A program made the translations under genes and the position numbers. Of a DNA stretch of 64,000 nt, positions 9,901 through 33,327 are shown one piece after another. A model generated the notes under the pieces. It saw only the letters and a list, made by a program, of their open reading frames with translations. It did not search any database and was not told the DNA's origin. Every line of letters begins with the position of its first letter. The stretch's first letter is position 1. Source of the stretch: Chlamydiota bacterium (GTDB lineage: Bacteria; Auribacterota; JACPWU01); the NCBI GenBank assembly GCA_016178055.1, contig JACOUC010000036.1:9-64008 (forward strand), read 5' to 3'.

Positions 9901-12900
9901 TTCTGCATCCCCGCGATGGCTTAAAAGGGCTTGATACTCACTCGATGTAACACGTGATTTTTCTTGTGCGTCTCTGGCCATGACCATCACCAAAGGAATC
10001 ACTTCCTTCGTTTGTTTTAAAGTTGTCAAAATAAAATAAATATTCTGATAAACCCCCTCTTGAAGGCGAATGACTTGAACAGGAAATTCAATATCATCTA
10101 AAGAAAGTTTACGCCCTCCCAATTCATCCTGAAGAGAATCGAGCAAAATATTTCCCTCTCCCGTTTCAAGATTCTTCATCAACAGAGCCTCAACCGCATT
10201 TCTTGATTGTGCCAATGTCAAATCATTGCGATCCCGAGGCACATCCCACTGATCTCCCTGCCGCCACTGACCCGCTCGATAGAGGTCATAATGGCAAATC
10301 CTACCCCCTTGAGCCATCGAGGCATTGTCCGGCATTTTCTCCATCGCTTGAGATAATCTTTGATAGATCTCAAGCGTCTGAGAGAAAGTGGAGGGCATTT
10401 TGGTTTTGAGTATATTCAGCTTTGATTGATAACGCTCAAGCAAAGTCCGATCCTGCAAAATCACAAAATTGACTGCTGTTAGAAATAAGAGTTGGTCTAC
10501 TTGACTCTGAATCGCCCCTTCAATAAGTTTTCCAAGTGTCCCGATCTCCTCGGAAAGCAAGGCCTGTCTCACTTCTTCTGTGATACGCTGATGCACATTT
10601 TCTCGTCGAACCACAAGAGGTTGAAGAGTAGAGGCTGCAGGCAAAGCAGTTTCACCAGACAAAATATGCGCCTCAATAAACCTCCTCAACGCCTTGCCCA
10701 GGGGATTTTTGCCTTCGCGATTGAAAATTTTATCTGTGAGCTGGATAATCTGAGGATGCGTAAGACGGGTTCTTTCCAAGGCCTCATGAAGGGTCGCTTC
10801 ATCCACCAGATCCGAAATGCCAGTGCTCTTTTCCTCCGCCTCAAGAAACTGCATCAGATTGACCGCCAAAGCGCTTTCAGAGCCCAAGAAATATTTTTCT
10901 CTGCTCAAGACCCGAGCCTCAAACCATTTGAAAGCCTCTCGAGGATTTTGAAGAGCCGCCAAGACCTTTACTATTTCATCGTTTTCAATTCCTTGCTGAA
11001 CCAATGTGCTCCAAATCTCACTTCCAAGGCGCCCAGCCAAAGCCCTCGAGCGTTCTTCCACAAGCGTTACAACAGGCTCATGGGAACTTCTCACCTTGTC
11101 ACTTTGCTCTTCAATTTCTCTTCGCCACTGGGCTTCTTCGTCAGGCGTAACCTCTGGGCCAATGATGTTGCCTGAAGATGGCTCTTCTTCACTTAAGGCG
11201 AGTGACGGAGATTGGGAAGTTTGAAGTTGCCACACAATTTTAGAAGATCCATCACCATTCGTCGTTAACACCTGACTCCCATCTTCAGAAAACTTAGCAG
11301 AGCGCACCCAATTTTTTCCTCCATAAAAAGTCTCAAGGAGCTCTCTTGTTTCAACATTCCATACTTGACCACTCCAATATCGAGTTCGCTCTAGGTAATA
11401 GTTATATTGATCACCCCCCCAGCTTGTTTCAGTTCTATCAAAACGCATTGTTAATACTGTACGTCCATCAGGGGAAACAAGAATATGAACAAGTTTTTTG
11501 CCCATGTATTCCCTATAACGCTTGATAATGCGTTCCTTTGCTTCTTCGGTTAATAGAGAATCAGGAGATCGAGGAGTCGTGGTACCTAAAGGAGCGTCTG
11601 ACGCTGTCGAAGTTACACTTCCTTTTTTCCCCCTCTTTCGAGAAGGACTTGACGGAGGTGTGACTGTTGCTCCAGCAGAGTCAGCTGTTATCGTTGTCGT
11701 GGTCGAATCAGCCCCTGAGCCCGTTTCATCTCGCACAGGTTCAGGGACTATGACTACTTTTGGAGCTTCCGTACATTCCATCCTCAACCAATATGTCACT
11801 TCATTCTCCCCTTCTGTAAAGCCCAACTGACACCCTGGAATAGATGCCATTTGTGCCTTGAGTTCGAGTAGTTTATTCCTGACATTGGATTCTCCTGATT
11901 CTCTGAGACGAAGGGCCTCCTGTCTTGCAGCTTCAATGTCTGGATATTCACCGGTGAGATGTGTTTTTAAGAATTTCTCTTCGTTGGCAGACATTCTTCC
12001 TTCTCTGACAATCTGAATATTAAAGTGGCCTTCTTTTAATTCACTTCCCAGTTCAATGAATCGGCCTGGGTTGTGGGTTTTGGCGATGCGGACAAATTCA
12101 TTGAGCCAGTCTTTTGCGATGGGTCTTTGTTCTTCTGGTAGAGGGAGAGCTTGTGTGAATGGGGTGATGGCTGCATCTTTTAGTTGGGGGTCGTTGTGGT
12201 TTGAACGCTGCCTTTGTTGAGGGGGTGCAGGTAAAGGGGTTCTGGCCCAGAAGCAGCCATATTGTCCATTCATCTGATCGGTTTTGGGAGCGGTTCTTTC
12301 AGAGTCGATGAGATTTGAAAGCACGGCTGGCTCCACCCCATCATTCTGAGAATCCACTGTTTGGCCGACGAGTCCCATGATCTTCTGAAAGATGGGAGCG
12401 ACAGCTTGAGAAGCTGATAATCGATTGTCTGAAGGGGGCGCAGGGTCGAAGGTGAATTGAAAGCCTCTTTCTGGGTTGATGTCTATGTGGAAGGTTCCGC
12501 CATTGAGAATGTGGCCTTGAGCCATTTCTTCGAGGATTCTGTTGCTTAAGGGGTCTCTGATCTCCTGTTCGATGAGTCGTCGTAAGGGCCGTGCCCCATT
12601 GATGATGTCATAGCCTCTTTGAGCGAGGGTTTCATAGACGTTATCCGCGACTTCGACTTTGAATTTGTTTTCTGTGAAGTCACTGAGTTCCCGTTTTAAG
12701 AGGATGCGAGCAATTTGTCTTATGTTTTCAGGGGTGATGACGTTGCAGGCGATGATGTGGTCGATGCGGTTGATGATTTCAGGTTTGTATTTGGCTCTGA
12801 TGCTGGTTTCTACGGTTTGGGCAATGAGGTCGTTCATTTGGGTAATAATAGCTTGTGTTGCCTCTTCTGTTTCTGCGGTTTTAAGTTCTTCAGCCAGGGT

Positions 12901-15900
12901 TCGTAATGGACCTTGTATTTTCTCCATGCCAATGTTGGAGGTCATGATGATGAGGGTGTTTTTGAAGTCGACGGTGTTCCCTTGGCCGTCGGTGAGTTTT
13001 CCTTCGTCGAAGACTTGCATGAGGGTGGTAAGGACGTCCGAATGGGCTTTTTCGATTTCATCAAAGAGGAGAACGGAATAAGGACGTTTGCGGACGGCTT
13101 CGGTGAGTTGGCCGCCTTCTTGGAATCCCACATAACCCGGTGGGGAGCCGATGAGTCTGGATTTTTGATGGGATTCTTGGTATTCACTCATATTGAAGAC
13201 CGTTAAGGCCTGGTCGCTGTCAAAGAGGAATTGAGCTAAGGCTTTAGCCAGTTCTGTTTTGCCTACGCCTGTGGGGCCGGCCATGAAGAAGACGCCCATG
13301 GGACGTTTGCGCTCACCGGGGATAGCCCGGGCACGACGAATGGCTTGAGCGACGGCTTTGATGGCGTCTTCTTGGCCTACGACTCTTTTATGGAGTTCTC
13401 CTTCGATGTTCAAATATTTGGCTGCGTCGTCTTGGTCTAAGGCACCGACGGCCATGCCGGTCATGTCGGCTAAATATTCCTGGACGTCGGCTTGGGTGAT
13501 GCGGATGTCTTTTCTTAAATTGGATAATCGGCTCAAAATAGTATGGTAAGCCTCGAGTATGCCGATCATTTGGTTATGGACTTCGATGACGGTGGGGTCG
13601 GTGTCTGGAACTCCTTCTTTTTTAAGGTCGATGTATTCGTTAATGACGCTGTGGAGACGGTTGAGGAAGTCTTCTTTAGTCATTTCTAGACTGTTCCTTC
13701 GGGCGTTGACTCGGCCCATGGTTCCTTCTAAGACGTCAATGGCTTTGCGGGGTTGGGATTTTTCAGAGAGATAGCGTTGGGCGCATTTGACAGCGGCTTT
13801 AATGGTAGCACGATCTATTTTGAGTGAGAATTTTCCTTCTAAGTAGGTTTTGGCGCCCGTAAGAATGGTTTCTGTTTCCTGGACACTGGGTTCAGGGACA
13901 GAAACTTTGGTAAACCTGTCTTCGAAGGGTTTGTCTTGTTCGATGTAGGCTTTGTATTCAGGGTCTGTCGTGGCCCCAATCACAGTGACTCGCCCTTTTT
14001 CCAGGATGGGCTTTAAGAGGTCTGCGATTCGGGTGTCAATGCTGTTGCTGGGCCCTTTCAATAGGAAATGGATTTCATCGATGAAGAGAATGACGTTGTT
14101 GTTGGTTTTTTCAAGGAGTGGGATCAGTGTTTTGAGGTTGTCTGACATCTCTGAGAGGGTGCTTCCTAAAGCACCCGCTTTAAGGGCAATGATTCTCCTA
14201 CCCTTTAAAGGGCCATCGAGGTTGTTTCGGGCAAGTTTCAAAGAGACGAGTTCGACGAGGGCTGTTTTACCGACTCCTCTGGGGCCGACAAGAACTAAGC
14301 TGTTTTTGATTCTTACTGGAGTGGCCAGACGAGCCATGATGCGGCCGATTTCTTCAGAGCGCCCCACCAATGGGCGAGCGCTGTCAGCTTCAAGAGCGAG
14401 GTCATAGGTATAGTCTTTTAATACCTGCCACTCTTTTTTCTTTTGACCATTGCCTAAATCGACATCTGCGTTCAGTCCTATTCTCTTCAAGTAATCATCC
14501 AGGGGCTCCATCGGAGACTCACCTACAGAGAGTCGAAGGAATGGGACACCGAGGAGATATCCTAAAAGACCTGCAACTACGGTAAACAATAAGGAAGCAA
14601 TCGAAGATCTCCCATTGATCATCGAAGCCCCCCATGGTACTATTTTGATAAAGGAGGCTTTAAAATGTCCGCGAAACTGCAAGAGCTGACGGAATTGATG
14701 GGAGAATTGGAGCCTAAAAGTCTTTCTCGACGAAGTAGAAATGTTGCCAAAGCGCTCTTGGGTAGCTGCCGCGGCCTCATCACGCCTCGAGGTAAGTCCT
14801 CTACCCGGTGGATCCGACAAGAACGTTCCTCCCTCCACAGCAAGGTGAGATAGTTCTGTGCCCTCATTACCAACACTCATTCTCGATACAGATGTCATTG
14901 TCAACTGGCTATCGGAAGAGCTTGAAACAGGAACAGGTCGAGAGTTATGGAAAGCCCCATTTGACATTATCTCTAAAGCAGAAGAAGGTCGCTCTAGTGT
15001 ACTCATTTGTCTTACAACTCTGTTAGAGCTTAGATTTCTCTTGAGGAGAAAGAAACGGCTGAGTGACGCTTCGATTCGGTCTATTATTAATCGAATGTTC
15101 CAAATTATTTCGGTCAATGTTCCTGACAAAACTGAATTGCTCAGGGCCAACCATCTCCAGAGCCTCCATCCTTTGGACCCGTTTGACGCAATACTGCTCG
15201 CTTGCGCCATGTCGTCTGAAGAAGCTATTCTTGTTTCTCGTGACAAGCCACTCCTTCGCATTGCATCTGAATTCCTTGAAGCACTTAACCCTGAAGATGC
15301 CCTCGCCAAAATTTCAAAGTCTTGAATAGCATCAATGCTAAGACGAAAAACCGGAGAGCCAAAAATCCATCCTAAGAGGCCTGTCCCTATGGCTAATAAC
15401 ACAGAACCAATTTTGAGGATGTGTTGAGCATGTGTATGCTCTCCTTTTCCATCGCCATGAGAATGGGTGTGAGCGGGTTTCATCACTATGCTTGAGGTAG
15501 GGCCTCCTTCATTTGAGGATTGAAGAAGTTCGAGGATTTTAAATTCATCGAGCCAATTCCCAATGGCTTCTACGACGCTTACTCCGTCAGGGAGCCTACA
15601 CTCTTCTATAAGTTTTCTTACAGTGGCTTCATCATCGGCCCCCATTTTTCCCATTTCACGCAGTTTTTCAATCAGCCTGGGCGTTAAGGCCTCACGAAAG
15701 CGCTCTTGAGTATAAGCACCGCTATTGATCATTTCATCCAGGGCCTCAGGGACGGCATGGGAAGCAGCATGTTCTGCGTCTTCTGAGTCTAAGTTGCTTT
15801 TGATGTCGGGATTCTTTTCGGCATCTTGAGCAAGTTGCCGCCCGATCCGGCCTAAGATCTGAGTCAATTTCTTCGCCGCTTCGTCTAGTTTTTTCTGAAT

Positions 15901-18900
15901 AAATTCTTCCTTCATGAGAATATTGGCTTGAATCTCTTTAAAAGGCTTACCGTAATGCTGTTCCAGCTCTTTTTGAAAAAGTTTAATAAAAAGGTCCCGC
16001 GTCTTAGGATCAGCCGTTTTTAATCGATCCGCCAGAAATTCACGTAAGGGTCTTTCCTCACACCAGCCCAGGGCACCAAAACCAAAGAATGCAGATATGG
16101 GAGACGTCATTGCGAGGAGCGAGAGCTCCGAAGCAATCCCAGCTTTGCGCAAAACAGAGATGGCTTCGTCGGCTTCACCTCCCTGCAATGACGGCCAAAC
16201 ATAGCTTCCATCCAAAGACGGAAGAGGCAAAAGATTCACCAACCCTAAAGCCAAATTAATTTTGACTCCCCAAATAAGCGGGCCCATTAAAAATCCAAAA
16301 GGCCCAACGGCATTAGCGGCAAGGGCCCCTACCGCAAAGACCACGGCCAAAATTAAATTACTCACCGGCCCCGCAAGCGCTACTTTCTTCATCGAAGATT
16401 CTGAGAGCCGCCAAGAAGAAATAGGAACGGGCTTTAACCACCCGATCGGAATCCCGATCAAAAGCGTAGACGCTAAAAAAGAAATCGTCCCCCAAAAATC
16501 TAAATGCCTCCAAAACCTGAGCAACGTCAATCGCCCCGCCTCCTCAGCCGTCCGATCCCCCAACCTCGCCGCCAGCCATCCATGGGCATATTCATGAAGA
16601 ATCGCGGAGAAGAGAATAATTGCTATCAATGGAACAGCACTTCCTAAAAGGCCAGGGTTGGCCACAAATACAGCGGCAAAAGGAATGCACAAAAAGACAT
16701 AAATATTCTTGACTTGCCCCGGACTTGATTCTATGATTTTTCTCATGAATGAGAAAAAGACTCCAAAACCTATTCCTACTCCAGAAGAAGCCCAGCGATA
16801 CAACTCCGTTATTATTGAGGAGATGAGAAGCCAATTTAAGGTTTTTGGCGAAGGATTAACCGGTTTTAGAAAAGAAACGAATGCACGATTTGACAGACTC
16901 GAAGAAGTCGTTATGGATACGCGTGAACGTGTCTCTAGGGTAGAGAATAGACTCACCAAAGTTGAAGAGAGCAACGCTCGCATTGAATCTGACATTCGCC
17001 TCATCAAAAACCAAATCAAAGTCAAGGTGGATTTAGAAGAATTTAAAGTACTTGAAAATCGGCTTGTGATCGTTGAAAAAAGACTGGCTGCCCTTCCCAT
17101 CTCCGCTTGATTAGCGCTATTTGAAACTCTTCTGGAACCCCCTATACTGCGTATCAAGCCATCCACATCCCCCACATATCCTCCTAATTCCAAGGCTCTT
17201 CTAAGGTAAATTTCTATTGAATGAGCCGTTTGTGCGTGACTCAGGAAAAATCGCATCTGATCTTGCGTGAGCGTAGTCACGCGTTCAAGCCAAAGAAGAG
17301 GGTTTTTCTGCAATTCATCGGAAACTTCCGAACGATTTTCCTTTCCCGCTTTCCTCTCTATTTCTCGAATAACCCCTTCTAAATCTCTCGCCACCTCCTC
17401 CCAATTTTCTAAATTAAGTTCTCGGGCCAAAACCTCTTGATCCCTTTGCCATTGATCAAATTGGAGAGCCGTAAGCCCCGCAGCAAAAGCAGCCTCTTCT
17501 CCCAACGAGCGTATTTCCTCAAGAAAATGAAGCCTCGCGATTTTCTGAAGGGTCGGAAGTGAGGCTTCTTTTAAAGCATCAGGAGCGCCCGAAATAAATC
17601 CAAATTGCTCTTTCATCTTCCTAAAATAGGCGCTGCGATCGTCATGACCCGTCATACGAGGGGCAATGACCCAATAACCGATCTTGGCCTCTTTCAATTT
17701 CTTCGTGATCCCCTCCGTATGAAACCCACCCACCACAAGCGCTGCACAGGGAAGTTTCTTTTCCTGAATTAATTTAAGAGATTTTTCGAACATGATTTTG
17801 TCTCGTTTTAGAACTTGAGTGTAGAATTTTTGGGAGAGGTTAAAGATTTCTCCAAAATCAGGAGATTCATAGTCTATTGCTTCCTTTTTAGCTAATTCGC
17901 CAAGTTGAATTAGAAAATCTCCGATAAAGTCGTTCGGGCCTGCTTGGCTCGAGGCTCGAGGATAATACTTTGCTCGAGGCTCGAAGCTCGAGGCTCGAAG
18001 TAAATGCTTCTCCAGTTTTTGCTTTTGCCTCGAGCCTCGAGCTTCGAGCCGTTTTATGTCTTCCCTACTTCCTTCCATCGCAATCACACGCCTGAGTAGG
18101 TCATAGTCTTTTTCTAACGCCAGCAGCTCTTTCGCCTGAGGCGTTGTCGCCAAATTTTCAACGAGTTCTCCTTCGAGGTTTTTAATTTCTTCATCCAACT
18201 TCTCCCAAGAGATTTGTTTTAGGAGAGACATTTGTTGAATAAGGAGTTGAAGATTGGGATATGGAGCTGATTTCTCGACAGGCTCGAAACGTTTATTAAT
18301 TCTGTTATTGGAGTGCTTCTCGACTGCGCCTCTCGCTCCACTATCGTTTCTCGACGCGTTTCGACTAATGTCGAAACTTGCTTGAAAACTAAATTTATTG
18401 TTCGAGCGTAGTCGAGAACCTTCCTTCGCGTCCTCTACCTCCTCCTGGCCCCTCCTTGTGGTTTGCGCCGTGTTAGGCTCCAACCACTTCCTCGTCCACC
18501 CGCTACGGCGGGTACCCGGACTTGGTCGCAAGGAAGGGAGATTATTTCCCTCTAGCTTCGAGCCTCGAGCCTCGAGCATTCCTAAGTACTTGCTTAGGAA
18601 CAAATAATGCTCTTCATCACTGGTTCTGCCCAGCCGATGCTCTAAGATATTTCTCAAAACTTCATTGAGTTCTTCTTTTGGAAGCTTCTTCTCTAGTTCA
18701 GATAAAAATAAGAGGTATTCAGACTCAATTTTTGATGCGTCCGTTTTCTTTTCGAGTGCTTGGAGTCGAAGGTAGAAATCAAGCTGGGGGTAGTTTTGGC
18801 TCGAAGCTCGAGGCTCAAGGCTCGAGGAGGAAAGAGGAAGAGATTTATTTTCTACATTTTCAGTTTTTCCTTTTGTCTTTGCTTTTGCCTCGAGCTTCGA

Positions 18901-19887
18901 GCCTCGAGCCTTCAGCCCGTTTTCCGCTTCTAGCTGCTTTACATATTCCCCCATCTCTATCTTATGCTCCCTATACTTCTCCCTTTCTTCAATGAGCTCT
19001 ATCAATTCCTTTGGATAAATTTTTTCGGACAAACCCCTAAATATATCATCTAAACCCTGCCAGACATGCTCTTGTAAATTCCTCTCCTTCAAAAGCTCCC
19101 CCATCGCCCTTAAATTCTCGACATAATCAGACAGTTCTTCCACCCCCACTCCCTTAACCTTTTTTGGCCCTTCCTTAACGAGAAAAGTCTCCACCCCATC
19201 GAGTTCATTTTTATCCAAGAATTTTTTGAGAAGAGAAGCTAAAACCCTCTGATCTGGGAAAGACCAGAAAAAGGACATGTCCATTTCACCATCAGCAGCC
19301 TCACAAAATATATGAAATGGTTTAAAATTCTCAGATACGGCTCTAACTTTGAGATTGTTTTGGCTCGAAGCTCGCCCGCCTCGCCTGACTCGTTCGTCAG
19401 ACGAGTCGCCGCCTTTGGCGAGCCTCGCCCTTTGGCGGGAGGTGGGAGGCTCAAGGCTCGAGGTAAATACTTCTGCTTTCTTTGCTTTTGCCTCGAGCTT
19501 CCAGCTTCGAGCCTCGAGCCCGTTTTTTTCTTCGAGCTTCGAGCCTCGAGCCTCTAGCTGCTTTTGTAAAATTTTCAACATCCTCTGAATATTCTCTTGC
19601 GCCTGAGAATTACAATGAATATCTTCAATAATGAAGAGATGAGGTGCTCCGGGGACATAGAATTGATCGGTCACTTCCCCTATTTCATGGGGAATACGCA
19701 TCTCCTCCAAAACTGAACTTAAATCGAGGGATTTGCGATCCACAGGATTAAACTCATTTACAGAAGTGACTGCTTTCAAATGAGTTGCGAATTGAGTATT
19801 CTGGCCAACAGAATAAGAAATGTCATAAAAGAGGAAGGAAAAACAAACGCACAAACTAATCAATGAACGCATAAACCTGACAAGCAT
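3931..19887 (-). CDS. Giant composite ORF1. Order: signal/TM, ChaN/TraB-like N-domain, M50 protease, Clp-type 2xAAA+, beta-propeller-like segment, large unknown region, GT4 glycosyltransferase, SAM-methyltransferase-like block, unknown C-terminus. It may be four fused cistrons.
   Basis: No stop from 19998 to 3931 (5355 codons). Likely start is ATG 19887 (MLVRFMRSLISLCVCFSF, signal-like), preceded by GAGAGGGG. The blocks are separated by stretches that are antisense to real plus-strand genes. In the ORF1 frame these stretches translate as S/T/L/R-rich low-complexity sequence. Confidence 0.55.
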   Translation of the reverse strand: MLVRFMRSLISLCVCFSFLFYDISYSVGQNTQFATHLKAVTSVNEFNPVDRKSLDLSSVLEEMRIPHEIGEVTDQFYVPGAPHLFIIEDIHCNSQAQENIQRMLKILQKQLEARGSKLEEKNGLEARSWKLEAKAKKAEVFTSSLEPPTSRQRARLAKGGDSSDERVRRGGRASSQNNLKVRAVSENFKPFHIFCEAADGEMDMSFFWSFPDQRVLASLLKKFLDKNELDGVETFLVKEGPKKVKGVGVEELSDYVENLRAMGELLKERNLQEHVWQGLDDIFRGLSEKIYPKELIELIEEREKYREHKIEMGEYVKQLEAENGLKARGSKLEAKAKTKGKTENVENKSLPLSSSSLEPRASSQNYPQLDFYLRLQALEKKTDASKIESEYLLFLSELEKKLPKEELNEVLRNILEHRLGRTSDEEHYLFLSKYLGMLEARGSKLEGNNLPSLRPSPGTRRSGWTRKWLEPNTAQTTRRGQEEVEDAKEGSRLRSNNKFSFQASFDISRNASRNDSGARGAVEKHSNNRINKRFEPVEKSAPYPNLQLLIQQMSLLKQISWEKLDEEIKNLEGELVENLATTPQAKELLALEKDYDLLRRVIAMEGSREDIKRLEARGSRQKQKLEKHLLRASSFEPRAKYYPRASSQAGPNDFIGDFLIQLGELAKKEAIDYESPDFGEIFNLSQKFYTQVLKRDKIMFEKSLKLIQEKKLPCAALVVGGFHTEGITKKLKEAKIGYWVIAPRMTGHDDRSAYFRKMKEQFGFISGAPDALKEASLPTLQKIARLHFLEEIRSLGEEAAFAAGLTALQFDQWQRDQEVLARELNLENWEEVARDLEGVIREIERKAGKENRSEVSDELQKNPLLWLERVTTLTQDQMRFFLSHAQTAHSIEIYLRRALELGGYVGDVDGLIRSIGGSRRVSNSANQAEMGRAASLFSTITSRFSSTLNSSKSTLTLIWFLMRRMSDSMRALLSSTLVSLFSTLETRSRVSITTSSSLSNRAFVSFLKPVNPSPKTLNWLLISSIITELYRWASSGVGIGFGVFFSFMRKIIESSPGQVKNIYVFLCIPFAAVFVANPGLLGSAVPLIAIILFSAILHEYAHGWLAARLGDRTAEEAGRLTLLRFWRHLDFWGTISFLASTLLIGIPIGWLKPVPISSWRLSESSMKKVALAGPVSNLILAVVFAVGALAANAVGPFGFLMGPLIWGVKINLALGLVNLLPLPSLDGSYVWPSLQGGEADEAISVLRKAGIASELSLLAMTSPISAFFGFGALGWCEERPLREFLADRLKTADPKTRDLFIKLFQKELEQHYGKPFKEIQANILMKEEFIQKKLDEAAKKLTQILGRIGRQLAQDAEKNPDIKSNLDSEDAEHAASHAVPEALDEMINSGAYTQERFREALTPRLIEKLREMGKMGADDEATVRKLIEECRLPDGVSVVEAIGNWLDEFKILELLQSSNEGGPTSSIVMKPAHTHSHGDGKGEHTHAQHILKIGSVLLAIGTGLLGWIFGSPVFRLSIDAIQDFEILARASSGLSASRNSDAMRRSGLSRETRIASSDDMAQASSIASNGSKGWRLWRWLALSNSVLSGTLTEIIWNIRLIIDRIEASLSRFFLLKRNLSSNRVVRQMSTLERPSSALEIMSNGAFHNSRPVPVSSSSDSQLTMTSVSRMSVGNEGTELSHLAVEGGTFLSDPPGRGLTSRRDEAAAATQERFGNISTSSRKTFRLQFSHQFRQLLQFRGHFKASFIKIVPWGASMINGRSSIASLLFTVVAGLLGYLLGVPFLRLSVGESPMEPLDDYLKRIGLNADVDLGNGQKKKEWQVLKDYTYDLALEADSARPLVGRSEEIGRIMARLATPVRIKNSLVLVGPRGVGKTALVELVSLKLARNNLDGPLKGRRIIALKAGALGSTLSEMSDNLKTLIPLLEKTNNNVILFIDEIHFLLKGPSNSIDTRIADLLKPILEKGRVTVIGATTDPEYKAYIEQDKPFEDRFTKVSVPEPSVQETETILTGAKTYLEGKFSLKIDRATIKAAVKCAQRYLSEKSQPRKAIDVLEGTMGRVNARRNSLEMTKEDFLNRLHSVINEYIDLKKEGVPDTDPTVIEVHNQMIGILEAYHTILSRLSNLRKDIRITQADVQEYLADMTGMAVGALDQDDAAKYLNIEGELHKRVVGQEDAIKAVAQAIRRARAIPGERKRPMGVFFMAGPTGVGKTELAKALAQFLFDSDQALTVFNMSEYQESHQKSRLIGSPPGYVGFQEGGQLTEAVRKRPYSVLLFDEIEKAHSDVLTTLMQVFDEGKLTDGQGNTVDFKNTLIIMTSNIGMEKIQGPLRTLAEELKTAETEEATQAIITQMNDLIAQTVETSIRAKYKPEIINRIDHIIACNVITPENIRQIARILLKRELSDFTENKFKVEVADNVYETLAQRGYDIINGARPLRRLIEQEIRDPLSNRILEEMAQGHILNGGTFHIDINPERGFQFTFDPAPPSDNRLSASQAVAPIFQKIMGLVGQTVDSQNDGVEPAVLSNLIDSERTAPKTDQMNGQYGCFWARTPLPAPPQQRQRSNHNDPQLKDAAITPFTQALPLPEEQRPIAKDWLNEFVRIAKTHNPGRFIELGSELKEGHFNIQIVREGRMSANEEKFLKTHLTGEYPDIEAARQEALRLRESGESNVRNKLLELKAQMASIPGCQLGFTEGENEVTYWLRMECTEAPKVVIVPEPVRDETGSGADSTTTTITADSAGATVTPPSSPSRKRGKKGSVTSTASDAPLGTTTPRSPDSLLTEEAKERIIKRYREYMGKKLVHILVSPDGRTVLTMRFDRTETSWGGDQYNYYLERTRYWSGQVWNVETRELLETFYGGKNWVRSAKFSEDGSQVLTTNGDGSSKIVWQLQTSQSPSLALSEEEPSSGNIIGPEVTPDEEAQWRREIEEQSDKVRSSHEPVVTLVEERSRALAGRLGSEIWSTLVQQGIENDEIVKVLAALQNPREAFKWFEARVLSREKYFLGSESALAVNLMQFLEAEEKSTGISDLVDEATLHEALERTRLTHPQIIQLTDKIFNREGKNPLGKALRRFIEAHILSGETALPAASTLQPLVVRRENVHQRITEEVRQALLSEEIGTLGKLIEGAIQSQVDQLLFLTAVNFVILQDRTLLERYQSKLNILKTKMPSTFSQTLEIYQRLSQAMEKMPDNASMAQGGRICHYDLYRAGQWRQGDQWDVPRDRNDLTLAQSRNAVEALLMKNLETGEGNILLDSLQDELGGRKLSLDDIEFPVQVIRLQEGVYQNIYFILTTLKQTKEVIPLVMVMARDAQEKSRVTSSEYQALLSHRGDAELVEVLRDGEVETQEGKVSAYTSRFINGRDEIQYISPHHAWANRIPPGYLLVNTSLPGKWGAFVEPGDMINTLAAMGRFLVRYYNPEAQTLIDGFRINAGDVGVDVRDLTAAQGRASVISGREMKFSLITWRGTKRGIDPSHFLDYYFNLHWLGSLREGEKGYRHESLGQGHDAILRTGVMQGFLLEMMKKHGNKEGLELAKVWLNHYINEIQARKLSEKPLFKVQELKAFISRYVDPALGSFSSGKGVLLPSYWLASQVTRPLDWFWVNVLGRKSLSRDFKEDFVVPFIEEIFIWALSLGSPVLYAVLRVVFVWGHERRLEAKNELEARSSREKQRTEEVFTSSFEPRASSGFSSSFRRIFIPTLISLVSLLGFFRTGLSSWEMILVVGITFYLVWNLYGARYLARAANFDSRRATRSSRILYSSKSTFTLTRFLMILRSASIRTLLSEIFSTLISPFSSRVSIFPSLISILSTLVSTFSSRVSILSTLVSIRALPSSTPRTRTRKLASSFSIRSNFLSILAKPSSVFSRSPDNPSPKTLNWPRRSSRMTATWLDFITESFSDLFSSMAGIVGQMLRQVKGKSQRAAIFLVVGMGLLILTSLIQPDIALAGLLPDIQPTSVVSNLFSNILRLWPVLAMGLIAHIVSNHWVTVTGALYQKGVLGDDANDDQGSQTSPEGSITVTQGEASTTENLSQLKEAFSGKVLVFYAPGYLEMNGVSTYMDHLLLLLAQEIKGLKIHVIVLGGGQRVSPLLKRDGGKVVVSSELEGVVQIHMTRQNNEPGQDLADEVNGLLRKILQEEGKVDLIVSESSFHYAGNAFNAFGKQNKIPVIQEFHSGPWRLLDRVPEDLVGDSRFFSPNTVNILKKADLALTVSESVQKRFQKDFGVEVECLYPVADLSFYDPRYVTTTKTDDLRVNHSLSGKTVILMSGRPVERKGYDVVLDAILGLSNDLKRNAAVVIAGFTEDMLRDGDDDYNRQFRESLYEKIQHLREEGVLIVLLGPLSAEEMRDWYFLSDIVAMPSRRDEPLKNEETFGLVSLEAQSMGKPVIVSRSGGLPETVVDGETGCIVESGNVEAFRGKIEELIRHPNLRVTMGQRARQVAGKRFSREANLERHLKLFLGVMRRTNILTEIKRIYTEINHQTIEEKNILEGIAAIFGLDFANDDERHREAGKILSIVAALPETRRKEVLENIVRFLKFMTWHASGEHRFMPLALAVVNMFEGRDIFSREPIVRFIQINPQFRYLLDMYHLYANPFGVEAEWIPTHLPSLHLSIPHKDHYRWLDIGSAPKAYGAPTLNLLRKTFEEALPGTHFSYEGTDAFFPSYSLESGEIRESAFNSADFRERGQTDVEGVTYLDARIPQNDVMSESFMQNRSAESFDFISLSMTLHHLKKPDEGVERRFLAKGVDWVDESGNAIQPFYLLTQTQQEVVERLLKRLSHQGVCFLNLPRGEIYFENQNEDLYLVIQRVGENQYCLYQEAIPFQPEYEVYSSVEFLITGLSFPGYNTSGIRSLYPDETNAFFTEINKWLYRADLLVCHYQGRDAFPWASVRAAVRAINERKGLVEIFSAYLHLVPEDEPLKSRILEGVVQFHKQNLIQNFESWAQENITAGLSLREWMESHTVYDILWTLGDATHSFAKETSLSENDLKTLDAVLVELMIQVKHPDLIREAEAHQAKTERLSLELEARRLLDEEGLGQTVQNIEQELEGKVERGEFQQSSITLDFSGDVTWSIRQDMNGASFEMEIGEMTAQLNSQTLGVTHVQMSRPRDLSLALAYLIGLKTKLRHFQKKFLAALKPSADQKPVCLFPDMDLPVQSLGGLSPTEFIKESETGNRKMVFVERKRSREEFDTLCREHQIPQDRVLFLTDLNEQDARSAIDTKVRELFRGKEAEKWLLGHRENRNLYEPIQGLFDKFMYGQEMVSVMAAICYGDAEAITRALLQHGFKPDELEGLLVDVDEHQVTPFANVSRWHDQMEKFREATEMTERSM
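5560..6070 (-). other. ORF1 block: class I SAM-methyltransferase-like region
   Basis: WLDIGSAPKAYGAPT (motif I-like) and FDFISLSMTLHHL (motif III/post-II-like). Weak call made by eye. Confidence 0.35.
6530..7800 (-). other. ORF1 block: GT4-type (GT-B) glycosyltransferase domain
   Basis: VLVFYAPGYLEMNGVSTYMDHL at the N-terminal end of the block. GRPVERKGYD and the EX7E-type ETFGLVSLEAQSMGKPVIVSRSGGLPETV motif lie toward its C-terminal end. Confidence 0.75.
8162..8190 (+). promoter_or_regulatory. Sigma70-type promoter giving a leaderless transcript of the nested coiled-coil gene (copy 1)
   Basis: TTGACT (8162..8167), 17-nt spacer, TACGAT (8185..8190), 7 nt, then ATG at 8198. The geometry is identical to 16709..16737. 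Confidence 0.6.
8198..8695 (+). CDS. Coiled-coil protein of unknown function (copy 1), nested antisense in ORF1
   Basis: MEENKSEN... with six near-perfect heptads (IETKVDK IETRLEK VETKVDK IEIRLGK IETRLEK GEIKVEK). It is a paralog of 16745..17110, sharing QFKVFGEGL and the conserved tail N.RIE.D.R.IKN..KVKVDLEE.K.LE.R. The TTG at 8162 used by the ORF track is the -35 box. Confidence 0.7.
   Translation: MEENKSENDSVMKSSHVAVILEDLRGQFKVFGEGLSGLREKTEEGFARIDKKFDRIENELANFRVRVRGVEDGNARIETKVDKIETRLEKVETKVDKIEIRLGKIETRLEKGEIKVEKISESNVRIEADLRIIKNLVKVKVDLEEYKILEDRVALLESKFAALAR
8848..8945. repeat. In-frame palindromic (GCTCGAG)n hairpin element
   Basis: Left arm 8848..8876, loop TAAATACTTCTTCGGTTCTTTGCTTTTC, right arm 8905..8928. 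In ORF1 it translates as LEAKNELEARSSREKQRTEEVFTSSFEPRASS. Confidence 0.85.
12480..14420 (-). other. ORF1 block: Clp/Hsp100-type double AAA+ ATPase
   Basis: Walker A motifs GPRGVGKT (~14264..14290) and GPTGVGKT (~13255..13280). Also ILFIDEIH, VVGQEDAI, LLFDEIEKAH and GARPLRRLIE motifs. A single TM helix precedes the block (MINGRSSIASLLFTVVAGLLGYLLG). Confidence 0.85.
14615..14643 (+). promoter_or_regulatory. Sigma70-type promoter of the nested PIN module
   Basis: TTGATC (14615..14620), 17-nt spacer, TACTAT (14638..14643). It is followed by the SD AAGGAGG (14651..14657) and ATG 14665. Confidence 0.5.
14665..14853 (+). CDS. Small protein upstream of the PIN gene, putative cognate antitoxin
   Basis: Perfect SD AAGGAGG 7 nt before the ATG. 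The ORF ends 4 nt before the PIN start. No recognisable antitoxin fold by eye. Confidence 0.45.
   Translation: MSAKLQELTELMGELEPKSLSRRSRNVAKALLGSCRGLITPRGKSSTRWIRQERSSLHSKVR
14858..15325 (+). CDS. PIN-domain (VapC-like) ribonuclease, nested antisense in ORF1
   Basis: LILDTDVIVNWL at the N-terminus, LLEL, DPFDAILLACA and SRD acidic-residue motifs of PIN domains. GTG start, with AAGGTGAG upstream. Confidence 0.8.
   Translation: MPSLPTLILDTDVIVNWLSEELETGTGRELWKAPFDIISKAEEGRSSVLICLTTLLELRFLLRRKKRLSDASIRSIINRMFQIISVNVPDKTELLRANHLQSLHPLDPFDAILLACAMSSEEAILVSRDKPLLRIASEFLEALNPEDALAKISKS
16150..16746 (-). other. ORF1 block: M50 (site-2 protease) family metalloprotease
   Basis: HEYAHGW at 16582..16596 (HExxH within a TM helix) and the NLLPLPSLDG motif. 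The block begins at an in-frame Met at 16746 (MRKIIESSPGQVKNIYVFLCIPF). Confidence 0.8.
16709..16737 (+). promoter_or_regulatory. Sigma70-type promoter giving a leaderless transcript of the nested coiled-coil gene (copy 2)
   Basis: TTGACT (16709..16714), 17-nt spacer, TATGAT (16732..16737), 7 nt, then ATG at 16745. Confidence 0.6.
16745..17110 (+). CDS. Coiled-coil protein of unknown function (copy 2), nested antisense in ORF1
   Basis: MNEKKTPKPIP...IIEEMRSQFKVFGEGLTGFRKE...KVKVDLEEFKVLENRL. Paralog of 8198..8695. Confidence 0.7.
   Translation: MNEKKTPKPIPTPEEAQRYNSVIIEEMRSQFKVFGEGLTGFRKETNARFDRLEEVVMDTRERVSRVENRLTKVEESNARIESDIRLIKNQIKVKVDLEEFKVLENRLVIVEKRLAALPISA
17946..18050. repeat. In-frame palindromic (GCTCGAG)n hairpin element
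   Basis: Arms 17972..18000 and 18028..18050, loop TAAATGCTTCTCCAGTTTTTGCTTTTG. Translated as LEARGSRQKQKLEKHLLRASSFEPRA. Confidence 0.85.
18290..18577. repeat. Composite GC-richer insertion ending in a (CCTCGAG)n arm
   Basis: Contains the 20-mer GTTCGAGCGTAGTCGAGAAC (18400..18419), an internal IR CCTTCCTTCGCG/CGCAAGGAAGG, and the arm 18550..18577. ORF2 and ORF3 have no counterpart in their N-domains. Confidence 0.6.
18798..18917. repeat. In-frame palindromic (GCTCGAG)n hairpin element, long-loop variant
   Basis: Arms 18798..18827 and 18888..18917, with a ~60-nt loop similar to that of 54885..55004. Confidence 0.85.
19362..19556. repeat. In-frame (GCTCGAG)n element with a nested GC-rich hairpin insertion
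   Basis: GGCTCGAAGCTCG ... [GACTCGT-TCGTCAG-ACGAGTC hairpin] ... GGCTCAAGGCTCGAGG TAAATACTTCTGCTTTCTTTGCTTTTG CCTCGAGCTTCCAGCTTCGAGCCTCGAGCC. Confidence 0.8.
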
Positions 19888-20069
19888 GACAACCCCTCTC
19901 GATCTTGAAAAAATCAATAATGACTGCAAGCTTACATAAGTAAAGACACTTTGGGGACTAGAAATGTAAAAATAAAAATTTAGAAATTTCCATCTCACAA
20001 TTGATAAAGGAAGGTTTCTTATAGAATAACCAGCTATTCCTTCAAGCCCTTACATAATGATTTCCTCTA

Positions 20070-24214: not shown

Positions 24215-24245
24215 ATTTCGAATCTCGGATTTCGAATTTCGAATT
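24215..24245. repeat. Left heptamer-repeat arm of the four-helix-bundle cassette
   Basis: ATTTCGA ATCTCGG ATTTCGA ATTTCGA ATT. Its reverse complement shares an 18-19 nt perfect core with 24617..24649. Confidence 0.8.
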
Positions 24246-24255
24246 GAAAAACAAA

Positions 24256-24618
24256 ATGAATTCTCAAGAGTTAAAAACGAGGACTAAACTGTTTGGACTT
24301 AAAATCATTCTTTTGGTTGAAAAATTGCCACGTTCAAAAACATTGGATATTATAAATCGTCAACTTCTACGCTCTGCAACATCCATCGGGGCAAATTATA
24401 GAGCTGCATGTCGTGCAAGATCCAAAGCGGATTTTGTGTCAAAAATTGGCATTGTCGAAGAAGAATCCGATGAATCAGTTTATTGGCTTGAATTGCTTAT
24501 AGAAACTAAGCTGGTTACTGATACCCAAATACATGTCTTGCTTAAAGAAGCAAACGAGTTAACAGCGATCTTTACCGCAACAGGAAGAACTACAAAAGAA
24601 AAACAGAAAAATGAATAA
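24256..24618 (+). CDS. Four-helix-bundle protein (23S rRNA intervening-sequence protein family)
   Basis: LPRSKTLDIINRQLLRSATSIGANYRAACRARSKADFVSKIGIVEEESDESVYWLELL fits the family pattern. ATG at 24256; the track start 24244 is a TTG inside the repeat arm. Confidence 0.8.
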   Translation: MNSQELKTRTKLFGLKIILLVEKLPRSKTLDIINRQLLRSATSIGANYRAACRARSKADFVSKIGIVEEESDESVYWLELLIETKLVTDTQIHVLLKEANELTAIFTATGRTTKEKQKNE

Positions 24619-26113
24619 ATCCGAGATTCGAAATCCGAAATCCGAAATCAAGAGGCTTTCCCTCGAATCCCTTGCCCAAAATGCCCTCGATGAGGCTATT
24701 TCGCTTGGAGCTTCCTACGCCGATGTCCGATTAATTGAATCCACCAGCCGAAATCTGGCCACCAAAAATGGAGTTCCAACCAGTTTGGATATTGAAGAAT
24801 CGCAAGGCCTAGGAATCAGGCTTCTTTATCATGGGGCCTGGGGATTTGCGGCTACGCATGATCTTTCAAATGAAAATGTATTACGGACAGCCTTTAAAGC
24901 CATTAAAATTGCTAAGGCCAGCGCCCTCACAAAAAAAGAGCCTGTTCGACTGGCCGAAGAAAAACCGATTCAAACAGAATGGTCCAGCCCCTTCTCCATC
25001 GATCCTTTTTCAGTTCCTATTGAAGAGCAACTTAATTTTTTATTACAAATCGATGAAGAAATCAGAAAAACCAAAGGGATCAGCATCTCTGAAACATCCA
25101 TGCATTTTCATAAAGAACACAAACTTTTTCTCTCGAGCGAAGGAAGCCGTATTCTCCAGCACTTTATCACCAGTGGAGCAGGGTTTGTTGCGATGGCTTT
25201 TCGAGATGGAGAATTGCAAAAACGTTCTTACCCTAATTCCTTTGGGGGACAATACCAAAAAAAGGGTTATGAGCTCATTCAAGAGCTAGAACTTCTCAAA
25301 AACGTTCCAAGAATCGCTGAAGAAACCGTTCGCCTTTTAGATGCCCCCAGTTGCCCTGTTGGAGAAAAGGATCTCATTTTAGACAGCTCTCAACTCGGTC
25401 TTCAAATCCATGAATCGGTTGGACACCCTATTGAGCTCGATCGAGTGCTCGGAAGTGAGGCCAATTACGCCGGAAAAAGTTTTCTTACGCTAGATCAATT
25501 AAAAACCCTTCAGTACGGATCCCCTATTGTTCACGTCGTCGCTGACGCTAGACTTTCACATGGTCCAGGTCTCGGCACGTTTGGCTATGATGATGAGGGC
25601 GTCCCTGCACAAGGAACGGATATTATTCGAGAGGGACAATTTGTAGGCTATCTCTCCTCTCGCGAGACCGCTCAAGATATCGGCGAAACACGCAGCAATG
25701 GAACCATGCGAGCTGAAAGCTGGAATCGGATTCCATTAATCCGCATGACCAATATTAGCCTCATGCCAAAAAATTGGGACTTTGAAAACTTAATTGCAGA
25801 CACAAAAGATGGAATTTATTTAGAAACAAATCGAAGCTGGAGCATTGATGATCGTAGGCTCAATTTTCAATTTGGAACTGAAATAGGATGGGAAATTAAA
25901 AATGGCAAGAAGATGAATAGGGTCAAAAACCCAATTTATTGGGGAATCACACCCGAATTCTGGAACGCCTGCGATGCCATTTGTAGTGATCGATATTGGA
26001 CGCTCTGGGGAACTCCCAATTGTGGCAAAGGACAACCCTGCCAAACCATGGGAACAGGTCACGGTTCTAGTCCAGCTAGGTTTCGCGGGATAAAGGTTGG
26101 AGCCAGTCATTGA
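24611..26113 (+). CDS. tldD: TldD-family metalloprotease
   Basis: 500 aa. The HESVGHPIELD (HExxxH) motif and overall TldD/PmbA architecture are present, and it pairs with the PmbA-like gene downstream. The only in-frame start lies inside the cassette arm. Confidence 0.8.
   Translation: MNKSEIRNPKSEIKRLSLESLAQNALDEAISLGASYADVRLIESTSRNLATKNGVPTSLDIEESQGLGIRLLYHGAWGFAATHDLSNENVLRTAFKAIKIAKASALTKKEPVRLAEEKPIQTEWSSPFSIDPFSVPIEEQLNFLLQIDEEIRKTKGISISETSMHFHKEHKLFLSSEGSRILQHFITSGAGFVAMAFRDGELQKRSYPNSFGGQYQKKGYELIQELELLKNVPRIAEETVRLLDAPSCPVGEKDLILDSSQLGLQIHESVGHPIELDRVLGSEANYAGKSFLTLDQLKTLQYGSPIVHVVADARLSHGPGLGTFGYDDEGVPAQGTDIIREGQFVGYLSSRETAQDIGETRSNGTMRAESWNRIPLIRMTNISLMPKNWDFENLIADTKDGIYLETNRSWSIDDRRLNFQFGTEIGWEIKNGKKMNRVKNPIYWGITPEFWNACDAICSDRYWTLWGTPNCGKGQPCQTMGTGHGSSPARFRGIKVGASH
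24617..24649. repeat. Right heptamer-repeat arm of the four-helix-bundle cassette
   Basis: AAATCCG AGATTCG AAATCCG AAATCCG AAATC. Translated as the first residues of TldD (KSEIRNPKSEI). Confidence 0.8.
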
Positions 26114-26119
26114 CAAGAA

Positions 26120-26178
26120 GATCTATAAACGCGGATCTAACGCAGATCTATAAACGCAGATCAAATGCGGATCTATTT
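26120..26178. repeat. Left repeat arm of the GxxExxY cassette
   Basis: Tandem GATCTATAAACGCG / GATCTAACGCA / GATCTATAAACGCA / GATCAAATGCG units, complementary to the right-arm units GATCCGCGTTT. Confidence 0.75.
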
Positions 26179-26655
26179 ATGGCTATAGAAGAAAAATTGC
26201 TGTATCAGGAGATTACATATGAGATTAGAGGAGCGTGTTTCTGGATATGGAAGGAATTCGCAAGTGCATTCAAAGAATCTATCATTGATAAAGCCCTCAC
26301 GGAGGAACTCAAGAAAAGGGGACTTAAGGTTGATAACCAAAAACACATAGACATTTTCTACAACAAAAAGAAAGTAGGAACTTATATTCCTGATAAAGTT
26401 ATCAATGATTGTGTGCTCGTTGAACTCAAAAGAAAACCTTTTTTACTACGGCAAGATAAAGAACAATTGTGGCATTATTTAAAAGGATCCGAATACAAAT
26501 TGGGTTTGCTAATCAACTTTGGAGAAAACGAACTAGAGTTTGAACGCATCGCCTACGACACTAAAAGAAGATCAAAGAGAGATCAGCGCCAGATCCGCGT
26601 TGCAGATCCGCGTTTGATCCGCGTAGTAGATCCGCGTTTGATCCGCGAACAATGA
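26179..26655 (+). CDS. GxxExxY protein (PD-(D/E)XK-like family)
   Basis: MAIEEKLLYQEITYEIRGACF... and LGLLINFG are typical of the GxxExxY family. The C-terminal 25-30 aa (IRVADPRLIRVVDPRLIREQ) are read from the right repeat arm. The track start 26110 is a TTG. Confidence 0.75.
   Translation: MAIEEKLLYQEITYEIRGACFWIWKEFASAFKESIIDKALTEELKKRGLKVDNQKHIDIFYNKKKVGTYIPDKVINDCVLVELKRKPFLLRQDKEQLWHYLKGSEYKLGLLINFGENELEFERIAYDTKRRSKRDQRQIRVADPRLIRVVDPRLIREQ
26581..26650. repeat. Right repeat arm of the GxxExxY cassette
   Basis: Five units of (CA)GATCCGCGTTTG type. The arm ends at the ATGA stop/start overlap with pmbA. Confidence 0.75.
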
Positions 26656-27992: not shown

Positions 27993-27994
27993 TA

Positions 27995-28226
27995 AAATCC
28001 AAAATTTAAACATCAAAAATCAAAATGACATCTCAAAATCCAAAATATATCTATGTCATAGATCATGAAATCATTTTAAATTTTAATATGTCATTTTGAT
28101 TTTTGTCATCATGAACTTTCAGTCCACCCAAGTGGATGAAAATTGAGTTCCTCCCCTTTGGGGTACAAAGGAGGGAAATAGCCAGTAACAACGTCTCATT
28201 TTCATGACTGAATTTTGATTTTTGGA
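27995..28226. repeat. Intergenic inverted-repeat element with AAAATCA-type heptamer arms
   Basis: CATCAAAAATCAAAATGAC (28010..28028) pairs with GTCATTTTGATTTTTG (28091..28106). A further copy GAATTTTGATTTTTGG lies at ~28210..28225. There is an internal hairpin CCTCCCCTTTG-GGGTA-CAAAGGAGGG. Confidence 0.55.
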
Positions 28227-33170: not shown

Positions 33171-33183
33171 CGATGAACAACGA

Positions 33184-33262: not shown

Positions 33263-33327
33263 CATTTTCCTCTAGATGGGTGGACGAAAGTTGGATGAAT
33301 TAAAATTACAATGACTAGGAAACATCT

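Follow-up and report, generated by a model that had tools for sequence, protein, structure and literature searches.

Rickettsia palindromic elements (RPEs) are short palindromic repeats which are found both between genes and, in frame, within the genes of Rickettsia (Ogata et al. 2000, reviewed in PMC10969869). Heptameric repeats, including the short tandemly repeated repetitive (STRR) sequences, are over-represented in bacteria such as cyanobacteria and Xanthomonas, and the excess is unexplained (PMC4692102). Tandem heptamers are also present in the intervening sequence (IVS) of the Coxiella 23S rRNA, where they vary between strains and lie at an RNase III site (PMC4990558). The element described here is a palindromic hairpin with arms of tandem GCTCGAR heptamers. 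It occurs in a 64,000-nt stretch of DNA (the window) from an uncultured Chlamydiota bacterium (GCA_016178055.1, contig JACOUC010000036.1, positions 9 to 64,008), which contains three giant minus-strand open reading frames (ORFs): ORF1, ORF2 and ORF3. The elements probably all belong, as copies or fragments, to a single non-coding family of dispersed palindromic DNA repeats, inserted in frame at tolerant linkers of the giant proteins. [quoted passage not shown]

Architecture of the element

With up to one mismatch allowed, there are 35 matches to the dimer GCTCGAGGCTCGAG in the window (0.02 are expected from shuffled sequence), all of them within ORF1, ORF2 or ORF3. Arrays of (GCTCGAR)n or (YTCGAGC)n are found at ten loci, every one inside a giant ORF; these are the ten positions listed by a sequence-only reading of the window. 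Eight of the ten are in the N-terminal domains (N-domains), which account for an estimated 13% or so of giant-ORF length, and the concentration described in that reading is confirmed. An nhmmer profile built from eight copies matches six full copies in the window. It also matches three copies in locus L121 and two or three in locus L140, both from the sister genome GCA_016196915.1.

According to the profile, the element has a core of about 105 nt and a composite form of up to about 190 nt. The composite consists of an outer-left arm, GGATAATACTYT, an inner-left arm, the loop, an inner-right arm, CCCGTTTT..TTT and an outer-right arm; it carries two conserved internal bulges in addition to the outer arms. 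The element had been described as two arms and a loop. Arms and loops are indeed as proposed, and the whole is larger than was thought. The short loop (27-28 nt, GTAAATRCTTCT..TTTGCTTTTG) is conserved, as is a variant of about 60 nt, and the two have their right half in common. Loops vary less than arms across copies and are nearly invariant between genomes. The inner and outer arms are terminal inverted repeats which make up most of the element, not just its ends. With a conserved loop and two conserved bulges, the elements are not simple microsatellites.

Five copies are detected as hairpins (8848-8926, 17972-18049, 18799-18917, 19449-19519 and 54886-55003), with arms of 15-36 nt which are 83-91% complementary. 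RNA folding gives stable structures for five of the six full copies (-27 to -51 kcal/mol, z -3.1 to -7.2). The sixth, at 63371 in ORF3, has the conserved loop expected of a full copy; its right arm has decayed, and it is no longer a significant hairpin (z -1.6). Searches against Rfam, at gathering thresholds for the whole window and in E-value mode for 17800-19700, returned only sub-threshold microRNA-like hairpins for the elements.

Two copies in ORF1 are enlarged. The site-1 composite contains a nested insert (19375-19448) made of several small palindromes (GGCGAG-G-CTCGCC, CCGCC-AAA-GGCGG and GACTCGT..ACGAGTC), which is missing from the ortholog P0001 and from the intergenic copies described below. 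At site 3 an arm and a degenerate opposite arm enclose about 270 nt of 'cargo', which is GC-richer, highly structured (about -95 kcal/mol) and open in one of six frames, that of ORF1. The cargo matches no Rfam family and has no second copy in the window or in the other DNA examined.

Copies outside the giant genes

A search of 5.8 billion proteins for homologs of the ORF1 N-domain found three proteins of related 'Chlamydiae bacterium' metagenome-assembled genomes (MAGs) and two weak matches. The three proteins, P0001, P0002 and P0003, are orthologs of ORF1; the N-domain of P0001 is about 51% identical to that of ORF1, and P0002 and P0003 are more distant. DNA was examined for two of the related MAGs, one of them the sister genome.

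The sister genome holds the element family in its orthologous giant gene, at two of the sites used in ORF1. It also has a copy at the 3' end of a DUF4416 gene (L121), the stop codon of which is the TAA of the loop, and further copies in the tyrS-rpsA and trpS-xerC spacers. Relative to neighbouring genes, the intergenic copies are found in both orientations, and two copies in L140 match the window copy at 19449 at every position of the loop (100% identity). Because unrelated loci of two genomes, coding as well as intergenic, have near-identical loops, the element is a dispersed DNA repeat and not a protein repeat. The absence of elements from housekeeping genes, reported from the window, holds there for the GCTCGAR family; it does not extend to the sister genome, with its copies at tyrS/rpsA, trpS/xerC and the DUF4416 stop codon. 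Since these intergenic copies exist, the concentration in giant genes probably results from tolerance or selection rather than targeting.

The distribution of the family is narrow and limited to a small group of uncultured bacteria with the NCBI name Chlamydiae/Chlamydiota. A search for the element peptide in the 5.8 billion proteins returned only two tiny ORFs, both in MAGs of the same clade. The arm-and-loop pattern has no match in JGI metagenomes, the loop pattern has none in viral contigs, and the loop motif is absent from the 120 listed (GCTCGAR)n tiles of other phyla.

Insertion into coding sequence

The three giant ORFs have paralogous N-domains (25-28% identity), and the elements fall in gaps of both paralog and ortholog alignments, as insertions should. 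Site 1 is filled in ORF1, ORF3 and P0001, and is an 8-residue linker in ORF2. P0001 has the site-1 and site-2 elements in common with ORF1. It has neither the nested insert nor the 270-nt cargo, and at the 17972 site other heptamer elements take the place of the ORF1 copy. P0002 and P0003 have at site 1 a hairpin with different arms and a similar loop, the arms in the P0003 DNA being octamers, (GCTGGGAA)n/(TTCCCAGC)n. Amino-acid conservation of the segments in distant orthologs is thus not seen: these have either no element or, in the corresponding place, a hairpin with other heptamers or octamers.

The predicted structure of the ORF1 N-domain (AlphaFold, AF2, six-sequence alignment) has a mean predicted local distance difference test (pLDDT) score of 62, with a core at 80-90. 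Four segments score below 50 (aa 131-186, 324-362, 441-539 and 619-651), and they coincide with the four insert loci (aa 110-176, 318-365, 438-537 and 609-648). Foldseek found no significant match to the N-domain model in the PDB.

At least two of the insertions predate the species split and are old and stable, since they are common to ORF1 and its ~51%-identical ortholog. The site-2 element is 88% identical at the DNA level between ORF1 and P0001, similar to its well-conserved flanks, and the numbers of heptamer units are equal. The site-1 element is 85% identical, with flanks at 55-60%. The sole loop indel between the two genes is 12 nt long and keeps the frame. Every insert, the cargo and the nested 75 nt included, is frame-preserving and stop-free, and all three giant ORFs are intact.

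Orientation and reading frame

The coding copies number eight (six in the window, two in L121) and all have the same orientation, in agreement with the sequence-only reading. Of the six frames of an element, four or five lack stop codons. Whichever of the three frames is read, a tandem heptamer yields one and the same cyclic peptide, and the constancy of the arm peptides (LEARGSK and SSLEPRA) is thus a matter of orientation alone; the peptides encoded by the elements include LEARGSKLEAKAK and SSLEPRASS. The observation that the heptamer has no stop in any of six frames is correct and unremarkable, as 50% of all heptamers are stop-free on both strands. The loop is the predicted K/E-rich linker in most copies, as AKAKKAEVFT, but it is not read in one uniform frame: the 17972 copy gives RQKQKLEKHLL and the 8848 copy is mixed.

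The reverse orientation would be less benign. One frame then meets the TAA of the loop, the other two give Cys/Phe/Leu-rich loops, and the hairpin and a T-run would be placed on the sense strand in a terminator-like arrangement. Survivorship would therefore explain the orientation bias, with no need for targeted insertion.

Origin of the elements

The sequence-only reading had proposed an RPE-like, in-frame palindromic repeat with STRR-like heptamers, and the dispersed family, the hairpin folding and the in-frame, stop-free insertion are all borne out. The family has been copied to unrelated sites, intergenic as well as coding. Those copies which lie in the three paralogous giant proteins occupy insertion-tolerant linkers, mostly in the N-domain, with the frame kept and no stop codon. 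We propose that they are transcribed and translated through as hydrophilic linkers (LEARGSKLE, a K/E-rich loop and SSLEPRASS), and their uniform orientation and stop-free state would be the mark of survival, not of targeted insertion. The heptamer arms may aid survival in ORFs: seven is coprime with three, and the same harmless peptide would result in any frame. Candidate routes of spread are an enzyme which works on the hairpin in trans, as the repetitive extragenic palindromic (REP)-associated tyrosine transposase (RAYT) does on REP doublets forming hairpins (REPINs), or recombination between heptamer arrays.

Several points weigh against this account. No transposase, target-site duplication or presence/absence polymorphism turned up, so mobility is deduced from the dispersed near-identical copies. 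Pfam and NCBIfam scans of the window ORFs, which left out some ORFs including the full giant ones, gave no transposase and no RAYT (TnpA_REP) family. By eye there is no consistent target-site duplication at coding or intergenic copies, the element ends being blurred by the outer arms. The comparison of coding with intergenic copies covers about 110 kb from three genomes, and translation through the elements is deduced from the integrity of the ORFs. Gaps in the six-sequence alignment account automatically for part of the low pLDDT at the inserts. Site 1 raises two further difficulties: a different-armed (GCTGGGAA)n hairpin with a similar loop at this site is not explained by a simple one-off insertion, and the better conservation of the element than of its flanks, and of loops than of arms, could indicate function rather than junk.

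Logan unitigs match the window identically. They end in the spacers flanking the neighbours of ORF1, two of them in or beside inverted-repeat or heptamer-hairpin sequence.

A wider population of heptamer-armed hairpins

Heptamer-armed hairpins form a population that spans the genome and crosses phyla, and the GCTCGAR elements are one family among them. Tandem Repeats Finder (TRF) detects many period-7 arrays with other units in the window, and perfect tandem arrays of at least three units are found there at period 7 only. The intergenic (AAAATCA)n hairpin (Table 1) belongs to a family also present in spacers of the sister genome, in which most of the intergenic spacers examined contain a heptamer-armed hairpin. 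Other inverted arrays enclose genes. One pair surrounds a four-helix-bundle gene of the 23S rRNA IVS protein type (24244..24618; TIGR02436, E 2e-23; PF05635). Close PF05635 homologs on unrelated contigs of other phyla (L142, L148, L149 and L150) have inverted arrays of the ATCCGAA/ATCCGCA type at both sides, and four of the five PF05635 or PF13366 genes looked at are bounded by inverted arrays. A right-hand array supplies the annotated N-terminus of the TldD gene that lies downstream (MNKSEIRNPKSEIK).

Arrays of at least three GCTCGAR units are found in at least 120 tiles from many phyla. Among the matches listed, an inverted partner lies no more than 450 nt away for about 10-19% of the arrays, and the loops are unrelated. 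The listed arrays have 3-18 units and come from Halomonas and its relatives, Planctomycetota, Acidobacteriota, Bacteroidota, Chloroflexota, Verrucomicrobiota, Patescibacteria and one cyanobacterium. Also among the matches listed, the arrays are usually just past stop codons or ahead of start codons and are often mixed with GGCTAGA, AGCCAGA or CTTTAGC. ORF overlap is an unreliable guide to whether they are coding or intergenic, because arrays extend spurious ORFs in high-GC genomes. An iterated hidden Markov model (HMM) search of all ORFs in the 120 listed tiles found no four-helix-bundle or GxxExxY genes beside (GCTCGAR)n in other phyla, so this association is not general for the heptamer.

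Heptamer arrays with other units also occur in frame. Two distant N-domain homologs from JGI metagenomes have them: L126 contains a (GTACGGA)n hairpin and three solo arrays (3287-3376, 3824-3883, 4319-4375 and 4499-4561), and L131 contains an (AACTCAG)n array (4922-4987). In ORF3 a solo perfect (AAAATCC)4 array (62902-62929) is read in frame as LKIQNPKSKIRNY, at the alignment position of ORF1 site 2. Within its gene for valyl-tRNA synthetase, a sister MAG has a (GAAGACA)5.4 array (L122, 2052-2089), so housekeeping ORFs of the clade can hold heptamer arrays. On L122 two overlapping ORFs, of 625 aa and 1570 aa, make up the giant gene (11797-11878); the break may be a sequencing error or a real disruption. 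A heptamer slip is not supported as its cause, the frameshift being at an A8 run.

A broader interpretation is conceivable, if unlikely. Inverted tandem 7-mer (or 8- or 11-mer) hairpins might form a widespread, undescribed class of selfish cassettes. Those carrying PF05635 or PDDEXK_3/GxxExxY genes would be the autonomous or founder forms, and cargo-less hairpins their MITE-like derivatives. Period-7 arms, frame-identical and often stop-free, would then be adaptive for entering rRNA (as IVSs), spacers and ORFs, with giant genes as tolerant sinks. If so, these sinks would also hold the cargo between 36-nt inverted repeats and the whole antisense PIN toxin module described below, with the frame unbroken.

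Table 1. Giant ORFs, GCTCGAR elements and related structures in the window. For elements the strand is the model orientation of the element; the host ORFs are on the minus strand.
Feature	Position	Strand	Remarks
ORF1	3931..19998	-	5355 aa
ORF2	35563..56601	-	7012 aa
ORF3	56702..63754	-	2350 aa
Short-loop copy, C-terminal third of ORF1	8836..8945	+	-44 kcal/mol, z -6.8; 98.5 bits (profile)
Short-loop copy with outer-left arm and GGATAATACTTT bulge, ORF1 N-domain site 4	17946..18062	+	-47.5 kcal/mol, z -7.2
(YTCGAGC)4 arm (18550-18577), ~270 nt cargo and degenerate opposite arm (~18280-18297), ORF1 site 3	18280..18577	+	
Long-loop (~60 nt) copy, ORF1 N-domain site 2	18796..18937	+	Reads GLKARGSKLEAKAKTKGKTENVENKSLPLSSSSLEPRASSQ; -51.2 kcal/mol, z -5.8
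Composite GCTCGAR element, ORF1 N-domain site 1	19362..19560	+	Loop GTAAATACTTCTGCTTTCTTTGCTTTTG; CCCGTTTTTTTCT bulge after inner-right arm
Nested GC-rich palindromic insert, 74-75 nt, left part of site-1 composite	19375-19448		In frame
Solo perfect (GCTCGAG)4.4 arm, C-terminal part of ORF2	36484..36531	+	In variable linker of a module repeated within ORF2
Long-loop copy, end of ORF2 N-domain	54884..55003	+	-45.9 kcal/mol, z -5.5
Solo (GCTCGAG)3 arm, ORF2 N-domain	55617..55650	+	Aligns with ORF1 site 3
Solo perfect (CCTCGAG)4.3 arm, ORF3 N-domain	63029..63071	-	Profile match on minus strand takes in loop start
Copy at ORF3 N-domain site 1	63335..63441	+	ORF1 site 1 in alignment; right arm decayed, outer-left arm inverted
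Cassette, inverted (ATTTCGA)n / (AAATCCG)n around four-helix-bundle / 23S_rRNA_IVP gene	24215..24648	+	31-nt arms, 87% complementary
Cassette, inverted 11-mer (AACGCAGATCT)n / (AGATCCGCGTT)n around GxxExxY / PDDEXK_3 gene	26119..26647	+	TIGR04256, E 1.4e-27; PF13366
Intergenic hairpin, (AAAATCA)n / (TGATTTT)n arms	27994..28110	+	33-nt arms, 88% complementary
Cargo-less hairpin, (GTCCACG/GTCAACG)n arms, between two transketolase subunit genes	33176..33264	+	-38.6 kcal/mol, z -7.2

Alternative explanations

The hairpins could be functional structured sites under selection, either for RNase III processing and decay, as in the 23S rRNA IVS, or as antisense terminators. We consider this doubtful. 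The stems are very stable (18-22 bp), and the conservation of the site-1 element and of the loops between genomes is what function would predict. On the plus strand, antisense to the hosts, a T-run follows the inner-right arm (CCGTTTTATG, CCCGTTTTTTTCT, CCCGTTTTCC or TCATTTTTAG). Two of the three intergenic or gene-end copies of the sister genome are directly 3' of a gene in terminator-like orientation, and there is a precedent in the Coxiella IVS with its tandem heptamers at an RNase III site (PMC4990558). However, sense and antisense RNAs fold equally well, with no asymmetry between strands in G-U and A-C pairs. In an RNAalifold analysis, compensatory change is confined to 2 of 26 pairs, with a covariation term near zero, so there is no evidence that pairing is maintained beyond common descent; the observed arm complementarity is about what neutral decay leaves. 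The loops are far longer than those of canonical intrinsic terminators, and a terminator scan, limited to loops of 3-8 nt and so blind to these hairpins, detected no complete element, just a 6-bp sub-stem within the right arm at 17972. The loss of an arm from one copy has had no apparent ill effect. A role as RNase III sites or antisense terminators is possible even for elements which originated as inserted repeats.

Phase variation is very unlikely. The arrays would in that case be contingency tracts, where slippage by 7 nt shifts the frame and acts as an on/off switch for giant secreted or surface proteins. In favour, the length of the unit is no multiple of three, and seven is the only period among the perfect arrays. 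The giant proteins bear signal peptides, and the arrays cluster towards the 5' ends of their genes; heptamer number does differ between Coxiella strains (PMC4990558). Against this, the GCTCGAR arrays are short (two to four units) and mostly broken by A/G variation. As unit numbers at site 2 are equal in species with ~51%-identical N-domains, the arrays are not hypermutable. With up to six arrays per gene an ON state would be improbable if they were unstable, and yet the three giant ORFs are all intact. A conserved loop and an inverted partner arm would be superfluous for slippage.

It is scarcely credible that the segments descend from an ancestral repeat or linker of the protein, coiled-coil-like in its LEARGSKLE motif and maintained by protein-level selection, with incidental DNA palindromy. 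The peptides are conserved between ORF1 and P0001 at two sites, and they are hydrophilic and partly predicted to be helical. This explanation is largely refuted by the intergenic copies, which place the same DNA in non-coding spacers in both orientations. In addition, complementary arms encode different peptides, the loop is read in different frames between copies, ORF2 and distant homologs are without the segments, and the peptide is nearly absent among the 5.8 billion proteins. Finally, the presence of stable hairpins within coding sequence recalls the byp elements of yeast mitochondria and T4 gene 60, but ribosome bypass or RNA removal is just as hard to credit here, since skipped sequence need not be frame-keeping and stop-free, as all the inserts are (including the cargo, open in one of six frames), and need not have a loop indel between species of 12 nt, a multiple of three.

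Neighbouring genes and other embedded sequences

Between the giant ORFs are genes for a SpoIIE/FHA/GAF protein, a glycogen-debranching enzyme, two TldD/PmbA proteins, a split transketolase, UbiD, an MqnC-like radical SAM protein and a DUF1559 pilin-like protein. The last of these has an acidic D/E-rich tail, and its gene is downstream of a c-di-GMP-I riboswitch (29248-29373, 56.9 bits, above the gathering score). A 22-nt inverted repeat (22071-22092 / 22215-22236, 95% complementary, 122-nt spacer) lies between genes, upstream of the debranching-enzyme gene, and Logan unitigs L123 and L141 end in its spacer. The window contains no rRNA genes. Small-gene clusters flank the ends of giant ORFs (2816-3900 and 34769-35498). 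By eye they are candidate toxin-antitoxin modules: AbrB/MazE-like with RelE-like, a DUF4160/DUF2442-like pair, and nucleotidyltransferase with HEPN.

ORF1 has a PIN-domain gene embedded antisense (14858..15325, plus strand; PF13470, E 2e-11; PF01850, E 1.4e-10), with a small same-strand ORF upstream. Across the whole region (14640-15325) the ORF1 frame is the sole stop-free frame on the minus strand (0 stops, as against 6 and 17). The corresponding segment of the ORF1 protein is flanked by two similar hydrophobic stretches, GSVLLAIGTGLLGWIFGSPVFRLSI and SLLFTVVAGLLGYLLGVPFLRLSV. The region looks like a toxin-antitoxin module embedded with the giant ORF unbroken. Two other stretches of ORF1 (8162-8695 and 16808-17094) are related to each other. 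Their plus strand would encode a K/E/T-rich coiled coil and the ORF1 strand S/T/L/R-rich low complexity, and the ORF1 frame alone is open on the minus strand. The former contains a 177-aa plus-strand ORF with 21-nt tandem repeats and weak FlaC_arch/ssr2422-like matches.

ORF3 contains a 36-nt inverted repeat (57706-57741 / 58076-58111, 97% complementary) and a second, nested pair of the 'SPLSLRGVRGV / PLKERGE' type. The 334 nt inside the repeats are in frame with ORF3 and encode a small, globular-looking segment (TTYQEVNYDENDPHLEKLF...IFIKNW) with no Pfam match. Peptides of the 'PLKLRGxxGVM' type are found at other sites in P0001, P0002 and P0003. By eye, P0002 (MAG HYS07) also has an intein-like (Hint) segment at residues ~1130-1330 (CVTADTMLPIV...HPYL), with heptamer-type peptides inside it.

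Comparison with known systems

Selfish palindromic DNA within coding genes is best documented in Rickettsia; here an RPE-like form of it would be present in an unrelated, uncultured Chlamydiota lineage. The frame neutrality of period-7 arms may explain how such elements survive in ORFs. The elements would also join three puzzles: the excess of heptameric repeats, the hairpin-flanked 23S IVS/four-helix-bundle genes, and the mosaicism of giant ORFs. For annotation, such inserts inflate and disguise giant proteins, through low-complexity LEARGSKLE and SSLEPRASS segments and spurious small ORFs.

RPEs are the closest described elements. Both are palindromic, multi-copy, non-autonomous repeats of about 100-150 bp, found between and inside genes, kept at orthologous sites across species and with no transposase known. 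Both are in frame, stop-free and read as extra peptide at structurally tolerant positions, translation being presumed here. They differ in the stems, which here are tandem heptamer arrays with a frame-independent arm peptide; to our knowledge, heptamer-array stems are not a feature of RPEs. The elements also have no known sequence relation to RPE-1 to RPE-10, and their host is a Chlamydiota-affiliated MAG rather than Rickettsia. Their host genes, in the ~110 kb examined, are giant multidomain genes, whereas RPEs occupy many unrelated metabolic genes. Nested insertions and the 270-nt cargo variant are further differences. The terminal inverted repeats of MITEs are present.

STRR sequences are similarly tandem heptanucleotide arrays, with period 7 over-represented; they are mostly intergenic and sometimes form inverted pairs. 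However, they are simple arrays, not defined by a conserved loop or composite, and are not described as in-frame ORF inserts. The elements share the 7-nt tandem unit and have in addition a conserved non-repeat part. With the 23S IVS (S23p/PF05635) they share a long terminal stem around a central segment and heptamers in the stem region, and both the window PF05635 gene and its homologs in other phyla are flanked by inverted heptamer arrays. The giant-gene elements differ from the IVS in having no ORF, in being located in protein genes rather than in helix 25 or 45 of rRNA, and in their unrelated heptamer unit and loop.

REPINs, also known as REP bacterial interspersed mosaic elements (REP-BIMEs), are associated with RAYT (PMC3116915). 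Like the elements described here, they consist of two inverted short repeats and a spacer, which form a dispersed hairpin. They lack target-site duplications, are mainly intergenic and have a single REP in place of each tandem-heptamer arm, whereas the present elements also have coding insertions. Palindromic amphipathic repeat coding elements (PARCELs; PMC2996958) are likewise dyad-symmetric coding DNA spread among genes, forming variable segments in membrane and surface proteins. PARCELs are tandem 25-residue protein domains recognised by a protein HMM; the elements of the giant genes are single heptamer-armed hairpins, which are found in non-coding DNA as well.

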